From the sequence record NC_134263.1: a stretch of 64,000 bases of DNA; one strand, 5' to 3'. Below, piece after piece: positions 8,007 to 30,599 of this stretch. The notes beneath the pieces were generated by a model. That model did not search any database, was not told the DNA's origin, and saw nothing but the letters and a program-made list of their open reading frames with translations. The translations under genes and the position numbers were made by a program. The DNA is from Escherichia phage T5_ev219. How positions within the stretch are numbered: position 1 is the first letter of the stretch; each line of letters opens with the position of its first letter.

Positions 8007-8198
8007 CTACAATTTTAAATAAGCCTATGATATTGCATTTAAATAAAAAATTTGCTTGCTTTTAACGTGAGATGTGTGATACTAGATAATCATTTTATAT
8101 CGCGTGCACGAGTGCGTGATTATACAATTTTTAATAGAGATTGGCAAATAAAATTTTTTGACTCAGATCATGTTACAGAACTTTATAGTAAAATATTG

Positions 8199-16903: not shown

Positions 16904-17608
16904 ATGGCTGGTTCTCGCAGAAAGAAACATATCCATGAAATCCCTGATGAAGTCTTTAAAAAAGTTATAGAGCATCTGGAGAACGGTGGTACTAAGAAAG
17001 CAGCATGTGAGATGCTCGGCGTATCATCCAATCCGACTATGGAAAGGATGATAGAAGAGTGGCAAGATCGCCAAATTCAGGTTGCCGAGATGAAGAAAAA
17101 GAAACGTGGTACACTCATTGAAGGTATTGAGTTGGCCAACGTTATTGAACAGTATCTATCTGGTGATTCTTTTGAAGAGATTGCCGATCGTAACTACCGC
17201 TCTGTAGCAATGGTTAAATCTGTTCTAGAACGATATGGTGCTCTACTTCGTTTGAACGATATTGTAGACCCCTTGAATCCTCCAATTATTCCTGACGATG
17301 CTGTAGCAGAAGAATTTGAGGTTGGAGAACTTGTTTGGGTTCCTGGATACCAGTGTATCGGTGAAATCAAAAAAGCAATGGATAACCCTGTTGGTTGTTA
17401 TCGAGTCTGGTTACTATCGGAAGGCAAACAACAGAACGTTCATTATATGAATTACGAGCTGGCTTCTGTTAAACATCTGGAAAAGTTAGGGGTTGACGTA
17501 AAATCTCTGGGGTACAAGTGGACTCGTGAAGAAGTTATTACGTTGATTAACGAAGCTGTTAAGGCTGCCTTGAAACTTGATAAAGAAAAAGGAAAACGCC
17601 GTGAGTAG
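16904..17608 (+). CDS. putative DNA-binding protein with two HTH motifs
   Basis: N-terminal HTH (GGTKKAACEMLGVSSNPTMERMI) and second HTH-like segment; GAGGAG RBS. Confidence 0.55.
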   Translation: MAGSRRKKHIHEIPDEVFKKVIEHLENGGTKKAACEMLGVSSNPTMERMIEEWQDRQIQVAEMKKKKRGTLIEGIELANVIEQYLSGDSFEEIADRNYRSVAMVKSVLERYGALLRLNDIVDPLNPPIIPDDAVAEEFEVGELVWVPGYQCIGEIKKAMDNPVGCYRVWLLSEGKQQNVHYMNYELASVKHLEKLGVDVKSLGYKWTREEVITLINEAVKAALKLDKEKGKRRE

Positions 17609-17852
17609 ACTAACTGATTTACTTAAAGATGGGGAAGTAAAAACACTATATCGCAGAAGCTGGGATAACGATAATAACGGCTTAGTGTTACTAACTTTAG
17701 ATGCTGACTCGGATGTAGTTACTCAGCATACTTGGATAGCCGGTAACTATCCATATAGCGAGGTTGTTTCATTAACAGTATGCGAAGCTATTGCGGACGA
17801 TTGGGAGGTTGCCAGCATTGATGATATGCTCGCTGTTGGCCTGGTGGAGTAA
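17601..17852 (+). CDS. hypothetical acidic protein
   Basis: ORF track 17577 (TTG) trimmed to GTG at 17601 with AAGGAAA RBS. Confidence 0.4.
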   Translation: MSRLTDLLKDGEVKTLYRRSWDNDNNGLVLLTLDADSDVVTQHTWIAGNYPYSEVVSLTVCEAIADDWEVASIDDMLAVGLVE

Positions 17853-17869
17853 CTACTTAAAAATTTCAG

Positions 17870-17898
17870 TTGCTTAATCCTACAATTCTTGATATAAT
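17870..17898 (+). promoter_or_regulatory. sigma70-type promoter (TTGCTT-17-TATAAT)
   Basis: Hexamers at 17870-17875 and 17893-17898. Confidence 0.65.
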
Positions 17899-17955
17899 AT
17901 TCTCATAGTTTGAAAGAACTATTCTGTTTAATTCTTAATTAAGGAAATATAAAAT

Positions 17956-18366
17956 ATGACTACTCCAACTCAGTGGACTGATGAACTGTTCGAAAAAATG
18001 TCTTCCGAATACGTTGCTCGTATGGAGCAATTCCCAGAGGATGAACGTCCGGGTGTTAGCATGGAAATTGTTAGCGAAATTGCCCAGGAAAATGGTGTAA
18101 CTCCGAACGGTTTTCGTATGAAGCTGACTAAAGCAGGTGTGTATATCAAGAAAGCTGCTGGCTCTGCTTCTAAATCTAGCGCATCTACTGGAGAAAAAGC
18201 TTCCGGTGGTTCTCGTACCTCCAAAGCCCAGGCTCATGCTGACCTTCGTTCAGCGTTCTCTGATGCTGGCTTAGCACCAGATTTTCTGGATGATGCAATT
18301 ATCGACAAACTGACCGGTAAAGCGGCTGCTCATCTGGCAGAAGCAATCCGAGCTATCACTAAGTAA
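17956..18366 (+). CDS. hypothetical early protein with host-optimised codon usage and Ser/Ala-rich linker
   Basis: ORF track; strong RBS; GC-richer codon choice than neighbours. Confidence 0.6.
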   Translation: MTTPTQWTDELFEKMSSEYVARMEQFPEDERPGVSMEIVSEIAQENGVTPNGFRMKLTKAGVYIKKAAGSASKSSASTGEKASGGSRTSKAQAHADLRSAFSDAGLAPDFLDDAIIDKLTGKAAAHLAEAIRAITK

Positions 18367-18402: not shown

Positions 18403-18699
18403 ATGACTAAAGCTGAAATTATTGCACAGTGCGAAAAATTTGGTGAGTTTTATCTTCATTACGAGAAACTTCGTCAGAAAGGAACCACGTACCTTCAGGG
18501 TACAATGGAATTTGATCCGGCCCAAGATAAATATCTGGCTGAGCGTATTAAACGCGAACGTATTCGTAAAGCGAAAGATGATGAAATCCTTGTCTTCTCT
18601 CGTACTAATGATAGCTTCCGTTTTATTCCTGTCGAGAAAGTTCGTCGTGTGACTAGCCTCCAATCAGAGTTAGATCGTGCTTCTCCAGTAGGCCGATAA
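18403..18699 (+). CDS. hypothetical protein
   Basis: ORF track; AAAGGAA RBS. Confidence 0.55.
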   Translation: MTKAEIIAQCEKFGEFYLHYEKLRQKGTTYLQGTMEFDPAQDKYLAERIKRERIRKAKDDEILVFSRTNDSFRFIPVEKVRRVTSLQSELDRASPVGR

Positions 18700-18707
18700 G
18701 AAAACAA

Positions 18708-18731
18708 TTAGCCCCTATATGGGGCTTTTTG
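18708..18731 (+). terminator. rho-independent terminator
   Basis: agcccc tatat ggggct hairpin followed by TTTTT. Confidence 0.7.
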
Positions 18732-18749
18732 TGTATTTGGGATATGTAA

Positions 18750-19058
18750 ATGAGCGAACAGGTAAATCAAAACTATGAAGGACACGTTGATGATCAGTCC
18801 ATCATACTTTGGGAGAAGGAGGGGGAACAAGTAAGATTAACAGTATCTGAATTTCGTGGGAATCTATACATGGGTATTCGTTACTGGCTTCTTGATATTA
18901 ATGATGAATGGTTTCCAACGAAATCTGGCTTCTCTTTTCCTTACACCCTAGAAACAACATCACAGCTTTTCTATGCGTTTACACAGATTCTTAGCGAATC
19001 TGAGGTTTTACATGAAGTACAGAAACGAGCTGAAGAACTCAAAGCCAAGAATGCCTAG
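18750..19058 (+). CDS. PC4-like ssDNA-binding / transcriptional coactivator p15-like protein
   Basis: Resembles PC4 C-terminal domain pattern (VRLTVSEFRGNLYMGIRYW...KSGFSF). Confidence 0.45.
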   Translation: MSEQVNQNYEGHVDDQSIILWEKEGEQVRLTVSEFRGNLYMGIRYWLLDINDEWFPTKSGFSFPYTLETTSQLFYAFTQILSESEVLHEVQKRAEELKAKNA

Positions 19059-19072
19059 TTCTTGGCTTTTTC
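19044..19072 (+). terminator. rho-independent terminator
   Basis: gccaagaa tgcctag ttcttggc hairpin then TTTTT. Confidence 0.65.
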
Positions 19073-19085
19073 TTTATAAATGTAT

Positions 19086-19114
19086 TTGCTTTCAACTCAG
19101 TTTTGTTATATAAT
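19086..19114 (+). promoter_or_regulatory. sigma70-type promoter (TTGCTT-17-TATAAT) for the ligase gene
   Basis: Hexamers at 19086-19091 and 19109-19114. Confidence 0.65.
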
Positions 19115-19145
19115 ATTTATATAAATTAATGAGAGATATAAATAA

Positions 19146-20117
19146 ATGACTAATGTAAAAGAATTTATTAAACGCTGTCAAGAAGCATATTATCAGGGTA
19201 TGTCTTTAATCTCTGATGAGGAGTATGATTGCCTGGTAAAACGCTTCCCGTTAGAAGAAGAGATCGGGCCTAGGGGTGATATTCCACATCTGTATCGTAT
19301 GTATTCTTTACAGAAAGTTTACTATAACCGTGGAGATAAATCACCATTCAATCCTTTAGGTCAGGTGGAAACCGATAAGTTAGATGGTTGTGCAATTTCT
19401 CTGCTATATATTAATGGCGAATTTGTTCAAGCATTAACCCGTGGTAATGGTATTCTGGGGAATGATGTCACAAGCAACGTAAGATTGCTGAACATTCCTA
19501 AAAAGATTTCCCAAAAAGTACCTACTCAAATCACTGGTGAAGTTCTAATTACAAAAGAAGTAGAAAATAAACGTAACTTTGCCTCTGGTGCTATTAACCT
19601 CAAAGATAGTGATGCTTTCGTACAACGTATTGGAGAAGGTGGTTTAATCTTCGTTGCATACGGTATCCAGTGTTCTGCTGAATCTGTAGGTATTACAGAA
19701 GCATATTTAAAAGATATGCTTTGGCTGGAGAATGAGAACTTCTTAACAGTTGTTAATGTGCGTTCCTTCTTTAAATGGATTCCGACGGACGGTAAAGTTG
19801 TTCGTATTAATGACAACAACAAATTCTTCCGTGAAGGCTGGACTAATAAATTCCCTCGTGGAGCATTCGCCATTAAAGAGGATGAAGAAGGCGAGATTAC
19901 AACTCTTACTAAAGTTGAATGGCAGGTAGGGGCTTCTGGTAAAGTAACTCCAGTCGGTTATTTTGAACCAGTAATTATTGATGATGCTACAATTGTTAAA
20001 GCGACTCTTAATAACGTTGATTATATTAACTCTCTTGATCTAGAGATCGGTTGCCAGATTCGAGTGATTCGTGCTGGTGGTGTAATCCCGTGCATAGTAG
20101 AGCGAGTATACGATTAA
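19146..20117 (+). CDS. ligA: NAD-dependent DNA ligase, N-terminal subunit (adenylation + OB domains)
   Basis: KxDG adenylation motif (ETDKLDGCAIS); 323 aa. Confidence 0.8.
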   Translation: MTNVKEFIKRCQEAYYQGMSLISDEEYDCLVKRFPLEEEIGPRGDIPHLYRMYSLQKVYYNRGDKSPFNPLGQVETDKLDGCAISLLYINGEFVQALTRGNGILGNDVTSNVRLLNIPKKISQKVPTQITGEVLITKEVENKRNFASGAINLKDSDAFVQRIGEGGLIFVAYGIQCSAESVGITEAYLKDMLWLENENFLTVVNVRSFFKWIPTDGKVVRINDNNKFFREGWTNKFPRGAFAIKEDEEGEITTLTKVEWQVGASGKVTPVGYFEPVIIDDATIVKATLNNVDYINSLDLEIGCQIRVIRAGGVIPCIVERVYD

Positions 20118-20167
20118 TACATAACCCTTTGCTACCCATCTACCATATCGGAATTATAAAGTGGTTA

Positions 20168-20196
20168 TTGACATTTTCGCCGCTTAGGTATATACT
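20168..20196 (+). promoter_or_regulatory. sigma70-type promoter (TTGACA-17-TATACT) inside the ligase inter-ORF spacer
   Basis: Hexamers at 20168-20173 and 20191-20196. Confidence 0.5.
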
Positions 20197-20260
20197 ATTA
20201 TCATTCAGTTGAGGGATAGAAAGTTATGGCGAGGGTAAGCAAAGTTAGTTAAAATTGTAG

Positions 20261-20289
20261 TTGCTAAATGCTTAAATACTTGCTATAAT
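20261..20289 (+). promoter_or_regulatory. sigma70-type promoter (TTGCTA-17-TATAAT) preceding the second ligase ORF
   Basis: Hexamers at 20261-20266 and 20284-20289. Confidence 0.6.
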
Positions 20290-20319
20290 ATTTATATAAA
20301 TTGATAAGGAAGAAATTTG

Positions 20320-21099
20320 ATGAAAATCGAAATTCCAACACAATGTCCCTCTTGTGGTTCTAAGCTAGATCTTGTCAACGGACAATTATTCTGTCGTAAT
20401 AAGTCCAACTGTCCAGCGCAATCAAGTAAGTTAATTGAGAACTTCTGTTCAAAAATGAAGTTAAAGGGTTTTGGCCCAAAAACTATTGAGAAGCTGGAGC
20501 TGACGAAGATTTCAGAACTATTTTACCTAACCGAAGAAGATTTGGTTAGAGCCGTGGGTAGCAAGGTTGCCGCTAAGTTAATTAGCGAATTAAATACTAA
20601 AGTTCGCGGAGACATTGACTTTGGTTCAGTTCTCGGTTCTTTAGGAATCCCTCTAATCGGAGAGGTTGCAGCAAAGAAATTATCCCAAAATTGCACTAGC
20701 TTCCACGATGTGAAGGCTGACGGCAAGGCTGGAGAAAACTATAAAGCCTGGCTAAATTCCCCACAGGGCAAGGATGTTATCGAATTACCGTGGAAATTCA
20801 CAACTGGTATTAAAGGTGCTAAAGCTGAGGTCATCATCACTGATGGTCTAGTAGCCCAACCAAACGGAATAACGGTATGTATTACCGGATCTTTGCAAGA
20901 TTTTGCAAATAGAACGGATGCAACAAACTATTTAGAAGGTCTAGGATATACGGTTAAGAAATCCGTTACCAAAGACGTCAAATACCTAATCTGTGAGGAT
21001 GAATCTAAGCGTTCTTCCTCATCTTATAAGAAAGCCGAAACGAATGGGATAGAAATCCTGTCGATTAAAGAACTATTGGAGAAAAATAATAATGTCTAA
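20320..21099 (+). CDS. ligB: NAD-dependent DNA ligase, C-terminal subunit (Zn-finger, HhH, BRCT-like)
   Basis: Four-Cys zinc finger CPSCG...CRNKSNC; ORF track TTG 20317 adjusted to ATG 20320 with AAGGAAG RBS. Confidence 0.8.
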   Translation: MKIEIPTQCPSCGSKLDLVNGQLFCRNKSNCPAQSSKLIENFCSKMKLKGFGPKTIEKLELTKISELFYLTEEDLVRAVGSKVAAKLISELNTKVRGDIDFGSVLGSLGIPLIGEVAAKKLSQNCTSFHDVKADGKAGENYKAWLNSPQGKDVIELPWKFTTGIKGAKAEVIITDGLVAQPNGITVCITGSLQDFANRTDATNYLEGLGYTVKKSVTKDVKYLICEDESKRSSSSYKKAETNGIEILSIKELLEKNNNV

Positions 21100-21859
21100 A
21101 CTGAACTGGAACGTAGAAGGTGTAACCGAGTCTCTGAAAGCAAAAGCCACTGCTCTGGGTGTTGCTGTAATCTCTCAAGAACAAGTAGCGGCTATCGCTG
21201 CTGAACTGGCTGCTGAAACTGGCAAAGACGTTACCGCTCGCTCTGTTGGCTCTAAGCTGCGCAAAGAAGGTTTCGAAGTACAGAAAGCTAACGAAGTACA
21301 GAAATCCCCGTGGACTCCTGAGCAGGAAGCTGAACTGGTTGATTTCCTGAACGCTCATGCTGGTCAGTATACTTATGCTGAAATCGCTGCTGCTGTAGCT
21401 GGTGGTCAGTTTGGTGCTAAGCAGGTACAGGGTAAGATCCTGAGTCTGGAAATGACAGCATCTGTTAAGCCGACCGAAAAAGCTGCTGCTGTTCGTTCCT
21501 TCACTCCTGATGAAGAAACTGATTTTGTTAATCAGGTTGTTGCTGGTGCTACTATTGAAGCTATCGCTGCTCACTTCGGTCGTAATATCAAGCAGATCCG
21601 TGGTAAAGCTCTGAGTCTGCTTCGCGAAGGTCGTATCGCTGCTATGCCGGTACAGGAAACTTCAAGTGCTAAAACTCGTGAAGATCTGTTAGAAGGTCTG
21701 GATCTGGCTAACATGACTGTTGCTGAGATCGCTGAGAAAACTGGTAAGTCTGAGCGCGGTGTTAAATCTATGCTGTCTCGTCGTGGTCTGGTTGCTAAGG
21801 ACTATGATGGTGCCGCTAAGCGTGCTAAATTGGATGCAAAAGCTGCGGCTGCTGAATAA
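21092..21859 (+). CDS. DNA-binding protein built of four HTH repeats (sigma70 region-4-like); position suggests a D5-type early DNA-binding protein
   Basis: Four approx 40-aa repeats with T.EEIA..G.....IRGKAL.LLR pattern; strongly host-optimised codon usage. Confidence 0.55.
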   Translation: MSKLNWNVEGVTESLKAKATALGVAVISQEQVAAIAAELAAETGKDVTARSVGSKLRKEGFEVQKANEVQKSPWTPEQEAELVDFLNAHAGQYTYAEIAAAVAGGQFGAKQVQGKILSLEMTASVKPTEKAAAVRSFTPDEETDFVNQVVAGATIEAIAAHFGRNIKQIRGKALSLLREGRIAAMPVQETSSAKTREDLLEGLDLANMTVAEIAEKTGKSERGVKSMLSRRGLVAKDYDGAAKRAKLDAKAAAAE

Positions 21860-23941: not shown

Positions 23942-24828
23942 GTAGAATAACAGAATTACTTGATCTTAAGGGAATTGAGTATAAAGATACTGGTGGAGAT
24001 ATTTTAATCTGTTGCTTAAATCCAGATCATGACGATAAACACCCAAGTTTGCGTATTGACCCTGAAACAGGTATTATGCACTGCTTGAGTTGTGGCTTCG
24101 GTAAAGGTATACCGAGCATTTACCATTATTTTAATGAGACTCAGTACCGACAGTCCCCAAGGCTATCGCAAGTACGTAAAAAGATTTCAGAGATTAGGAA
24201 TGGATCAACGAATCTTGCAATTCCTGAATCTGCTTGCCTTTTCGAAGGTGATTTCCGAGGTATAAGTTCTAAGACCTTGAAGAAATATTTTGCTTTCCAA
24301 CACCAAGCAGACTGGGAAGGCAGAATTGTATTCCCAATCACAGATGCTGTTGGACGCAATATCCTATTTTTGGGTCGTTCTATAAACAGTTCTGCCCCTC
24401 CTAAATACTTAGTAAAACCAAAACAAGTTTCACCGCCAATTTTTCCTGTACGATATAATACTCCAGTTCTTATTCTAGTTGAAGGCATCTTTGATATGCT
24501 GAACCTAGAGGATAATGGTATAGACTATACTTCTTGCTGCTTTGGTACACACCAGTTTACTTCGGATAACATTGCAGATAAGTTCAGTCCTTATATTATT
24601 GCCGGTGTAAAAGTTGTTGTTATCTTACTAGATAATGATGCTTCTGGTAATAAAGCTGCCCAGGCGCTAGCAAAATTAATTAGTACAAAAACGCGTTTAA
24701 CACCTGTAGTTGCTAACTTTCTTCTGCCTGAAGGTAAAGACCCTGGTGACTTAAATAAAGAAGAGATTGATATGTTAGCAAAACGTATTGAAATTTTAGT
24801 TGCTGAATCGCTTAAAGATTTGGTATAA
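23938..24828 (+). CDS. DNA primase (DnaG-like, Zn-finger + TOPRIM)
   Basis: Zn finger CLNPDHDDKHP...CLSCG; TOPRIM-like LVEG...DNDASG. Confidence 0.75.
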   Translation: MSRITELLDLKGIEYKDTGGDILICCLNPDHDDKHPSLRIDPETGIMHCLSCGFGKGIPSIYHYFNETQYRQSPRLSQVRKKISEIRNGSTNLAIPESACLFEGDFRGISSKTLKKYFAFQHQADWEGRIVFPITDAVGRNILFLGRSINSSAPPKYLVKPKQVSPPIFPVRYNTPVLILVEGIFDMLNLEDNGIDYTSCCFGTHQFTSDNIADKFSPYIIAGVKVVVILLDNDASGNKAAQALAKLISTKTRLTPVVANFLLPEGKDPGDLNKEEIDMLAKRIEILVAESLKDLV

Positions 24829-27948: not shown

Positions 27949-29297
27949 AGGTTGTTATATCTAATAAAGCCTATTTCAAGCCAGATGATGAACTTTGGGA
28001 TTATTGTAGTAAGCAAACCACTTATCACATAGAGACAATGACTAGTAAATACCCTATTATGTATAAGAATAGTGGTGTTGTTGCCAAAGAGATTAAGTGG
28101 ATTCCTATTACGCGTCTGGACTTACTAGATGCTAAAGGAGTAAAATACGAATTAGTCGATAAACGCACATTAGCACCGGTAGATATACCAAAACCGTCGT
28201 TTAAACTGCGTGAAGAAGATCAGCTTCCAATATATGAAGAATGCGATGATACCTGTATTATTAATGGTAAGCCTGGGTTTGGTAAAACTATCCTAGCACT
28301 TGCACTTGCGTATAAATTTGGTCAGAAAACTTTGGTAATCTGTACGAATACATCCATTCGTGAAATGTGGGCGGCAGAAGTTCGTAAATGGTTTGGGTTT
28401 GAACCAGGCATCATAGGTTCTGGGAAATACAATATTGATCCACCAATTGTAGTCAGTAATATTCAAACAGTGAATAAACATGCGAATAATCTTTCTAAAG
28501 TATTCGGTACTGTTATAGTTGATGAAGTTCACCATTGTGTGGCTACAACTTTCACTAACTTCCTAGAAATATCATGTGCTCGCTATAAAATTGGACTATC
28601 TGGTACACTAAAACGAAAAGATGGTTTACAAGTTATGTTCAAAGATTTCTTTGGATATAAGATATTTAGCCCACCGGTTAATAATACTGTTGCACCTACA
28701 ATCCATAGGTACTCCGTGCCTGTTGAGCTATCAGGAAACCAAAACGTACCGTGGGCATTACGTGCTAATGATGTGTATAACCATCCTGAATATCGAGAGA
28801 CTATTATAAACCTAGCACATTTATATGTGAATATGGGACATAAGGTAATCATTGTAAGTGATAGAACAGAGTTAATCCAAACAGTACTAGAAGCTCTTAC
28901 ACAGCGTGGTGTTACAACCTATGAAATTATAGGAGCAACCCACTTAGATGACCGATTAAAAATTCAGGAAGATATAGCAAAAGGTGGACCTTGTGTACTT
29001 GCAGCAGCTCAAAGTATCTTCTCTGAAGGTATTTCCCTTAATGAGCTGTCTTGTTTAATAATGGGAAGCCTCATTAATAATGAATCTCTCATTGAACAGC
29101 TTGCAGGCCGTGTTCAACGTATTGTCGAGGGCAAACTCGACCCTATTGTTGTAGATCTAATCATGAAAGGTGGCACTGGACTAAGACAGGCTTCTGGACG
29201 TATGGCAGTATATCGTAACAACGGGTGGAAAACTATTACTATGACTCCGGAGAAAGCAGTTCAATTAGCTAAAATTGCATTTGGCAACAGCTCATAA
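27945..29297 (+). CDS. SF2 DNA helicase (T5 D10-like)
   Basis: Walker A GKPGFGKT, DEVH box (VDEVHH). Confidence 0.8.
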   Translation: MKVVISNKAYFKPDDELWDYCSKQTTYHIETMTSKYPIMYKNSGVVAKEIKWIPITRLDLLDAKGVKYELVDKRTLAPVDIPKPSFKLREEDQLPIYEECDDTCIINGKPGFGKTILALALAYKFGQKTLVICTNTSIREMWAAEVRKWFGFEPGIIGSGKYNIDPPIVVSNIQTVNKHANNLSKVFGTVIVDEVHHCVATTFTNFLEISCARYKIGLSGTLKRKDGLQVMFKDFFGYKIFSPPVNNTVAPTIHRYSVPVELSGNQNVPWALRANDVYNHPEYRETIINLAHLYVNMGHKVIIVSDRTELIQTVLEALTQRGVTTYEIIGATHLDDRLKIQEDIAKGGPCVLAAAQSIFSEGISLNELSCLIMGSLINNESLIEQLAGRVQRIVEGKLDPIVVDLIMKGGTGLRQASGRMAVYRNNGWKTITMTPEKAVQLAKIAFGNSS

Positions 29298-29309
29298 ATG
29301 ATGTATAAT
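29281..29309 (+). promoter_or_regulatory. sigma70-type promoter (TTGGCA-17-TATAAT) with conserved leader
   Basis: Hexamers at 29281-29286 and 29304-29309. Confidence 0.55.
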
Positions 29310-29380
29310 ATATACATAAATTTGAGAGAGAAAGTTTCGGATTGATAAGAAAGTCCGAAGCAGAAAAATAAAAATTTTAG

Positions 29381-29410
29381 TTGCTAAATTCTCTCGAAAT
29401 CTAGTATAAT
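29381..29410 (+). promoter_or_regulatory. sigma70-type promoter (TTGCTA-18-TATAAT)
   Basis: Hexamers at 29381-29386 and 29405-29410. Confidence 0.6.
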
Positions 29411-29517
29411 ATATACATAAATTCGAGGAGAAAACAAAAATTAAATTCTTCGATTATGAAAAGCTATACTTACTAGCTAGAGGAAATTCCGACCTAATTA
29501 TTAAGCTATTCAAAAGA

Positions 29518-29802
29518 ATGCTTACAGAGCCTGATGCTCACCAATTATTGGTCGGTTCCTCATTCATTTTGAATGAATCAACAATAGTTGATAATCCAAA
29601 TAAATTGTCTAATAGACAACTGGCAGAATATCTAGGAATTTTAAGTCTACGAAATTATGCCGAATACAAGTTTACAAACGATCCTAGTTTGGACATACAA
29701 TATGTTCCAGTATGGATACCACGTTTAGTAATCGACACTAACCCACTAATCGCAATTAACAAATCGAAATTAATCTTTAAAGAGGAAATAAAATATGGCT
29801 AA
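29518..29802 (+). CDS. hypothetical protein
   Basis: ORF track. Confidence 0.5.
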   Translation: MLTEPDAHQLLVGSSFILNESTIVDNPNKLSNRQLAEYLGILSLRNYAEYKFTNDPSLDIQYVPVWIPRLVIDTNPLIAINKSKLIFKEEIKYG

Positions 29803-30568
29803 GTCTTGGGGCGAAACTACTGGCGGTTCTAACGATAAAATCGAATTCCTGAAGTTCAACAACGGTATCACTCGTGTTCGTATCGTTTCTGGTGTTCTTC
29901 CACGTTATGTCTATTGGCTGACTAATAAAGAGGGTAGCGTAGCTCCTTTCGAATGTCTCCGTTTTAACCGCGACAAAGAGAGCTTTGTTCGTGGTAAAGC
30001 TGACCCGGTTCATGAGATGGGCTTCTTTGAGAAAGAGCTGGATAAAGATGGCAATCGTGTTCCGCTGAAACCGAAGAAAAACTATATCGCTTTTGTTATC
30101 GACCGTTCTGATAACAAACTGAAAGTAATGGAAGTCAAAGCTACTATTCTGAAAGGCATCCAGTCTATCATGAAGCAGTTGAATCTGGCAACTCCGTTTG
30201 ATATTGATATTTCTATCGAGAAAAAAGGCAAAGGTTTCGATACTGAGTATGATGTACAGCAGATTGCTGCTATGCAGTTCCAGATTAAGCTGCAAGATCC
30301 TAACAGTGCGGAATCTAAGCAATATGCTGCGGATGTAGATCTGATTGGTGAAGCTATGTGTGACGAAGATGGCGACATCATTAAGTTCGAGAAAGTTCCT
30401 TCTCTGGAACAAACCTATCCAGTTCCTACCTATGAAGAGCAGAAAGAAGCAATTCAAGCCTTCATGGAAGGTCGTGAGAATAAAGATGATGATGCCAAAT
30501 CTGGTAACAGCAATGCTGGTTCCCAGAAAGGTATTGACTCAGAAGCTGCAAGCGATCTGGACGACTAA
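29795..30568 (+). CDS. abundant early protein with acidic C-terminal tail (possible SSB-like)
   Basis: Host-optimised codon usage; C-terminus EAASDLDD; AAGAGGAAA RBS. Confidence 0.5.
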   Translation: MAKSWGETTGGSNDKIEFLKFNNGITRVRIVSGVLPRYVYWLTNKEGSVAPFECLRFNRDKESFVRGKADPVHEMGFFEKELDKDGNRVPLKPKKNYIAFVIDRSDNKLKVMEVKATILKGIQSIMKQLNLATPFDIDISIEKKGKGFDTEYDVQQIAAMQFQIKLQDPNSAESKQYAADVDLIGEAMCDEDGDIIKFEKVPSLEQTYPVPTYEEQKEAIQAFMEGRENKDDDAKSGNSNAGSQKGIDSEAASDLDD

Positions 30569-30574
30569 TAAATA

Positions 30575-30599
30575 GAGGGGCTTCGGCCCCTTTCTTTTT
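30575..30599 (+). terminator. rho-independent terminator
   Basis: ggggc ttcg gcccc hairpin then TTTCTTTTT. Confidence 0.75.

Follow-up and report, generated by a model that had tools for sequence, protein, structure and literature searches.

The PC4-like gene and its locus

The window, a 64,000-nucleotide stretch of DNA from Escherichia phage T5_ev219 (NC_134263.1), carries on its plus strand a cluster of early replication genes that includes a gene for a small protein of the PC4 family. The features of this locus are listed in Table 1, together with those of D11, a second candidate for a single-stranded DNA (ssDNA)-binding protein (SSB). At 18750-19058, an open reading frame (ORF) encodes the product that the sequence-only reading had described, and both peptide strings quoted in that reading, RLTVSEFRGNLYMGIRYW and KSGFSF, are found in the translation. 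The protein consists of a short acidic N-terminal segment (residues 1-23), a Pfam PC4 domain (residues 24-64), and a C-terminal third that is helical. A modest Shine-Dalgarno sequence, GGGA, is located 7 nt before the start codon.

Table 1. Features of the PC4-like locus and of D11 in window coordinates
Feature	Position	Strand	Basis and remarks
T5.112 homolog, 91 aa, annotated 'transcriptional regulator'	17577..17852	+	Annotation
Early promoter P-N26	17850..17924	+	T5 annotation; 100% identical in the window; 57.5 bits
D3 (DNA-binding protein, PHROG 1725), first gene of the putative operon	17956..18366	+	ORF; T5 annotation
T5.114 homolog, 98 aa, PHROG 3696 (function unassigned)	18403..18699	+	ORF; PHROG
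Upstream hairpin, intrinsic-terminator-like	18710..18731 (stem 18710-18726)	+	AGCCCC-TATAT-GGGGCT, then TTTTT; terminator scan
PC4-like CDS (T5.115 ortholog)	18750..19058	+	ATG..TAG ORF, 102 aa
Downstream hairpin, terminator-like	19041..19076 (hairpin 19041-19069)	+	12-bp stem, then TTCTTTAT; overlaps the stop codon
ligA promoter	19066..19140	+	TTGCTT, 17 nt, TATAAT; T5 annotation; 100% identical; 64.7 bits
ligA (NAD-ligase adenylation and OB domains)	19146..20117	+	ORF
Two strong promoters between ligA and ligB (P-K28b, P-K28a)	20148-20222, 20241-20315	+	T5 annotation
ligB (HhH and BRCT domains)	20317..21099	+	ORF
D5 DNA-binding protein	21092..21859	+	T5 record: required for replication and late transcription
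D11 promoters P31A and P31B	29261-29436	+	T5 annotation; 100% conserved; strong (weight matrix)
D11, 257 aa, SSB candidate	29795..30568	+	ORF; PHROG 1607; RefSeq annotation
D11 terminator	30577-30599	+	T5 annotation; 100% conserved

Over 1.9 kb, the locus shares 98.7% identity with phage T5. Identity between the window and phages T5 and BF23 amounts to ~97% over 24 kb, and the window therefore belongs to Tequintavirus (Demerecviridae). The T5 counterpart of the PC4-like gene is T5.115 (YP_006943.1), which has an identical protein sequence, occupies the same genomic position, and is flanked by the same regulatory elements. The surrounding DNA is ~97-99% identical to that of T5, which marks the phage as a close T5 relative and not the reference strain.

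A tblastn search detects the PC4-like gene in 902 phage records at identities that range from 100% down to ~44%, among phages of Escherichia, Salmonella, Klebsiella, Pectobacterium, Providencia, Vibrio, and Aeromonas. This distribution, in its breadth and divergence, identifies the ORF as a genuine gene and not a chance one. Within Demerecviridae, the PC4-like gene belongs to the core gene set. In two relatives, Aeromonas phage AhSzw-1 (2513-2725 of locus L006) and Vibrio phage D138 (2582-2842 of locus L005), the annotated coding sequence starts later than the tblastn match. Because the homology reaches upstream of the annotated start codons, these gene models are probably truncated, with a deposited N-terminus that is too short.

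Synteny of the early replication cluster

The kept gene order is D2, (a small ORF), D3, T5.114, the PC4-like gene, (zero to three small ORFs), ligA, ligB, and D5. The order from D2 to D5 holds in six further Demerecviridae loci, four of which are assigned to separate genera, and the PC4-like gene is a member of this early replication cluster. The gene immediately upstream in every Demerecviridae locus examined is the homolog of T5.114, a protein with no match in Pfam. In Pectobacterium phage My1, the start of the PC4-like gene lies 1 nt past the end of the T5.114 homolog, and in Vibrio phage Morian the two coding sequences overlap; this arrangement implies co-transcription. T5.114 and the PC4-like protein may be partners in function.

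The gene had been placed just upstream of a ligase, and ligA indeed starts 88 nt downstream. Two genes ~200 nt apart, ligA and ligB, together encode the NAD-dependent DNA ligase; this split is annotated in T5 and kept across the Demerecviridae loci examined. Two other products of the region carry domain matches of their own. Residues 204-230 of D5 match the Pfam family Sigma70_r4_2 with 29.1 bits against a gathering cut-off of 25.7, accompanied by several weaker helix-turn-helix hits. The T5.112 homolog shows a weak Pfam match of the Thoeris anti-defense Tad2-like type that falls below threshold (E = 0.0096; 16.9 versus 25 bits).

Transcriptional context

A terminator-like hairpin lies between the T5.114 homolog and the PC4-like gene, whose ATG follows 23 nt after the stem. 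The hairpin folds with a predicted energy of -16.8 kcal/mol (z = -2.9), and the 'putative rho-independent transcription terminator' annotated in T5 maps to 18711-18730 of the window with 100% identity. Klebsiella phage vB_Kpn_B01 has retained a comparable hairpin in front of its PC4-like gene.

The sequence-only reading had credited the gene with a promoter of its own, a detail that proved wrong. Even under relaxed criteria, the plus strand shows no sigma-70-like site from 18440 to 18750. A promoter weight matrix was built from seven annotated T5 early promoters, which themselves score 45-69 bits; upstream of the PC4-like gene its best score is -22.5 bits, and thus no promoter of the T5 early type is detectable there. 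Outside the training set, the matrix finds 68-nt matches on the plus strand at 8182 (8.6 bits), 10157 (41.1 bits), 13286 (35.5 bits), and 63094 (47.9 bits), and a site at 24784 (22.6 bits) that maps to the annotated pol promoter of T5. The promoter-like element that follows the gene, at 19066-19140, is the annotated ligA promoter of T5 and does not belong to the PC4-like gene. The nearest promoter upstream of the PC4-like gene is P-N26, which precedes D3.

The terminator attributed to the gene is supported by a strong terminator-like hairpin that overlaps the stop codon. The fold of this hairpin has an energy of -20.3 kcal/mol (z = -5.95), and none of 200 shuffled sequences folds as well. Judged from the sequence, the hairpin is likely to form the 3' end of a D3/T5.114/PC4-like transcription unit, of which the PC4-like gene is most likely the last cistron, reached by terminator read-through. 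Transcription from P-N26 would read through a leaky terminator at 18710..18731 to reach the gene, and the transcript would end at the hairpin just before the ligA promoter. A literature search for T5 transcription-start or terminator mapping returned nothing relevant.

Family membership and structure

The Pfam PC4 family (PF02229) matches the phage protein with 32.1 bits (E = 8.1e-8), above the curated gathering cut-off of 25 bits, and aligns residues 24-64 with positions 3-42 of the 52-position profile. In the same scan, run to E <= 10, no other Pfam family matches the protein, including YdbC/DUF2128. PHROG 4053 is matched with E = 9.5e-55, and NCBIfam holds no family for either the PC4-like protein or D11.

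Structural evidence comes from chain A of the PDB entry 4BG7, named 'putative transcriptional coactivator p15', which is identical to the window protein at 102 of 102 residues. This entry is the PC4 homolog of phage T5 (Steigemann, Schulz and Werten, J Mol Biol 2013, 425:4125). According to the citing literature, the T5 protein shares ~25% identity with human PC4 and forms a swapped homodimer of the type II PC4-like kind, with one additional helix at the C-terminus. Through this identity to a published structure, the window protein has the PC4-like fold, a four-stranded curved antiparallel sheet and a helix in a homodimer. The gene, its PC4 homology, and the crystal structure were already published in 2013, and the gene is annotated in T5 records. 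A single-sequence AlphaFold2 model of the protein (mean pLDDT 65.9), in which the core residues 32-47 are modeled as a helix, was too unreliable to be used.

A family profile was built from seven aligned Demerecviridae homologs with 41-70% identity to the window protein. In a search of PDB sequences, the profile finds 4BG7 with E = 7e-50, the bacterial PC4-like protein BPSL1147 with E = 4.5e-5, and three human PC4 entries, 4USG (E = 4.6e-4), 1PCF (E = 1.3e-3), and 6YCS (E = 1.4e-3). The earlier identification of a PC4-like protein of the ssDNA-binding type in a phage is therefore correct at the family level, as the Pfam score, the identity to 4BG7, and the extension of the family profile to human PC4 all indicate, and it repeats what was already known of T5. 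The outcome that the earlier reading named as a refutation, the absence of a significant PC4-family hit or of a fold match, did not occur.

The residues that may contact DNA can be located by comparison with PC4. PC4-fold proteins bind ssDNA on concave beta-sheets via stacked aromatic and basic residues. The DNA-contact residues of PC4 include F77, a stacking phenylalanine, and the basic residues R86 and R100, which contact the backbone (PMC4350104). The counterparts of these three residues in the phage protein are F35, R44, and K58, and position 58 is a lysine or arginine in all seven aligned sequences. Five residues, F35, Y40, R44, P56, and G60, are invariant across the seven. A second aromatic residue of PC4 that stacks on DNA is W89, replaced by tyrosine in many orthologs. 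In the gapless HMM alignment, PC4 W89 pairs with L47, and the conserved aromatic residue W46 (tryptophan or tyrosine in 7/7) pairs with Y88; residues R29, Y40, and W46 are located on the concave sheet of 4BG7 (PMC7145618). The ssDNA-contacting residues of the phage protein are likely to be F35, Y40, R44, W46, and K58. The literature on the PC4 fold describes both ssDNA binding and duplex destabilization, and secondary sources term the phage T5 protein a predicted or putative SSB.

Human PC4 and yeast Sub1 (1PCF, 2C62, 4USG) belong to the same Pfam family as the phage protein, residues 30-64 of which match residues 72-106 of PC4. In a single BLASTP comparison with an approximate sequence of human PC4, the identity is 26% with E = 0.014. 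The alignment falls on the C-terminal domain of this PC4 sequence, the best segment covering PC4 72-120 and a second, insignificant one covering 110-117. The N-terminal region of PC4 comprises ~60 residues, is rich in lysine and serine, and carries the coactivator function. Only 23 residues precede the PC4 domain in the phage protein, and these are acidic (MSEQVNQNYEGHVDDQSIILWEK), so that the long regulatory or coactivator region of PC4 is absent. By sequence alignment, the counterparts of PC4 W89 and R70 lie one residue off in the phage protein, and K101 is not conserved. The human and T5 proteins are both described in the literature as dimeric ssDNA binders, and the extra C-terminal helix, which enlarges the dimer interface, is there given as a feature of the phage protein. 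Unlike human PC4, the phage protein acts in a bacterial virus, where there is no Pol II machinery.

Among proteins of known structure, BPSL1147 of Burkholderia pseudomallei (5A4N/5A4O) is the best non-phage relative. It is reported to form a homodimer, but it differs from the phage protein in its length of 75 aa and its cellular origin. The initial reading had also compared the protein with those of the YdbC type. The comparison is valid for the fold, since YdbC (DUF2128) from Lactococcus lactis (2LTT) is described in a review as a dimer with the type II PC4-like fold that binds ssDNA; it does not extend to the sequence, where DUF2128 gives no match to the phage protein at E <= 10.

D11 as a candidate SSB

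D11 matches PHROG 1607, 'single strand DNA binding protein', with E = 4.5e-106, and the RefSeq annotation agrees. The gene is found in 908 phage records with a genus distribution almost equal to that of the PC4-like gene, and the two genes appear to co-occur in genomes. The C-terminus of D11 is acidic (...SEAASDLDD), and this tail is conserved in seven of seven aligned homologs, including that of Bacillus phage G. D11 has no match in Pfam, and its family profile gives no hit among PDB sequences at E <= 10. An hhalign comparison with T4 gp32, based on an approximate gp32 sequence, returns an insignificant probability of 0.4%. The single-sequence AF2 model of D11 (pLDDT 36.5) was unusable. D11 is used as 'the T5 SSB' in recent work on defense systems, although it has no match at the level of Pfam, NCBIfam, or PDB sequences.

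Functional evidence is available from a transcriptome-wide CRISPRi-ART knockdown screen of T5 (PMC11879866), in which genes important for phage fitness are scored as 'Fit'. In this screen D11, labeled 'probable SSB', is 'Fit' (4.46, p = 6.7e-10), and T5.115 is 'Not Fit' (-4.40, p = 0.82). Both D3 and T5.114 are 'Fit', the latter with a value of 3.04 (p = 1.5e-7). With only 17 genes called 'Fit', the screen failed to recover plausible essential genes such as T5.108 (origin-binding protein) and the helicase D10, and its authors call the sensitivity limited. For this reason, the 'Not Fit' result is weak evidence that T5.115 is dispensable. The DARNA preprint likewise labels D11 as the T5 SSB and maps T5 escape mutants to the SSB gene. 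Based on these data, D11 is probably a better candidate than the PC4-like protein for the main replicative SSB.

The PC4-like protein is not the 'DNA-binding protein' of T5 by which DRT4 and DRT9 are triggered; that trigger is ORF55/gp58, a PriA-NTD-like 3'-end binder encoded in the deletable region of T5.

Role of the PC4-like protein

The explanation that we favor, and hold to be likely as a whole, is that the window encodes the crystallized PC4-like protein of T5, the product of an early replication-cluster gene that is expressed by read-through and has an auxiliary role. This explanation joins what was observed for the gene, namely its identity and family, its conservation and synteny, and its regulatory anatomy, to the fold and dimeric state given in the literature. 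The protein would bind and stabilize unwound or juxtaposed single strands, such as bubbles, D-loops, and gapped or nicked intermediates, and it would do so in an auxiliary capacity during T5 replication or recombination-dependent replication. The strict conservation of the gene across the family argues for an important function and is a point against this explanation.

A more specific version of this role is conceivable, though we regard it as doubtful. With D11 as the SSB, the PC4-like protein would be a specialized binder of two strands that works with T5.114 and might stabilize origin bubbles, D-loops, or the site-specific nicks of T5. These nicks, bubbles, and D-loops could be held in this way for the ligase encoded next to the gene and for the recombination machinery.

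A different proposal, put forward by Steigemann et al. 2013 and Werten 2013, is that the protein is the 'hitherto elusive' replicative and recombination-stimulating SSB of T5. In this capacity, it would be the principal SSB of T5-like phages, coating ssDNA at the fork and stimulating recombination-dependent replication. The proposal has been repeated in later papers, and it accords with the ssDNA binding and duplex destabilization that the literature ascribes to the fold, and with the position of a gene that is universal in Demerecviridae among early replication genes and beside the ligase. It nevertheless seems unlikely when the protein is set against D11, which is equally universal, is annotated as an SSB, and has an acidic C-terminal tail of the kind usual in replicative SSBs. 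The C-terminus of the PC4-like protein, ...KRAEELKAKNA, has no acidic tail and is variable among relatives. Two strong promoters precede D11, whereas the PC4-like gene is located behind a terminator and has no promoter of its own, which makes it a poor fit to a protein needed in stoichiometric amounts. Neither high expression nor a requirement for growth is indicated for T5.115, which is 'Not Fit' in a screen of limited sensitivity that scores D11 as 'Fit', and the escape mutations of the DARNA preprint point in the same direction. In addition, over-expression of the PC4-like protein is reported to have barely altered T5 recombineering. It is improbable that the PC4-like protein serves as the main stoichiometric SSB of replication.

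The comparison with classical phage SSBs leads to a similar contrast. T7 gp2.5, T4 gp32, T5 D11, and the PC4-like protein are alike in ssDNA binding (predicted for the PC4-like protein), early expression, and replication context. According to the literature, gp2.5 and gp32 have OB folds and acidic C-terminal tails that recruit polymerase and helicase. The PC4-like protein differs from these SSBs in its fold and in having no such tail; the SSB-like anatomy and the knockdown phenotype belong to D11.

A role in transcription is more improbable still. Here the protein would act as a regulator or coactivator of host RNA polymerase where promoter DNA is melted, for instance in the switch from early to late expression. 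Its names, 'transcriptional regulator' in PHROG 4053 and RefSeq and 'transcriptional coactivator p15', speak for such a role, as does the coactivator function of eukaryotic PC4. Of the DNA-binding neighbors D3 and D5, the latter is required for late transcription and has a motif resembling sigma-70 region 4. A further phage ssDNA-binding protein, N4-like Drc, is a cofactor of RNA polymerase according to the literature. Against this, the names appear to have been transferred from the name of the Pfam family and not derived from experiment. The protein retains only the ssDNA-binding core of PC4, with a short acidic segment before it, and the literature found gives no transcription phenotype for the T5.115 protein. 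Finally, the weak BLASTP match to human PC4 could have suggested that the ORF is spurious or that it resembles PC4 only by chance. This reading is refuted by the Pfam score, the identity to 4BG7, the number of phage genomes that carry the gene, and the human PC4 chains found by the family profile.

Implications for T5-like phages and the PC4 family

The analysis corrects the usual labeling of this gene. The label 'transcriptional regulator' appears to be a name carried over from the Pfam family. D11, with the anatomy of a main SSB and the matching knockdown phenotype, now casts doubt on the label 'the T5 replicative SSB'. The role of a PC4-fold protein in a bacterial virus is relevant to the view that eukaryotic PC4 arose from factors of replication and repair. 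If the PC4-like protein is indeed a specialized two-strand binder, T5-like phages would provide a tractable bacterial model for a non-transcriptional, ancestral function of PC4.
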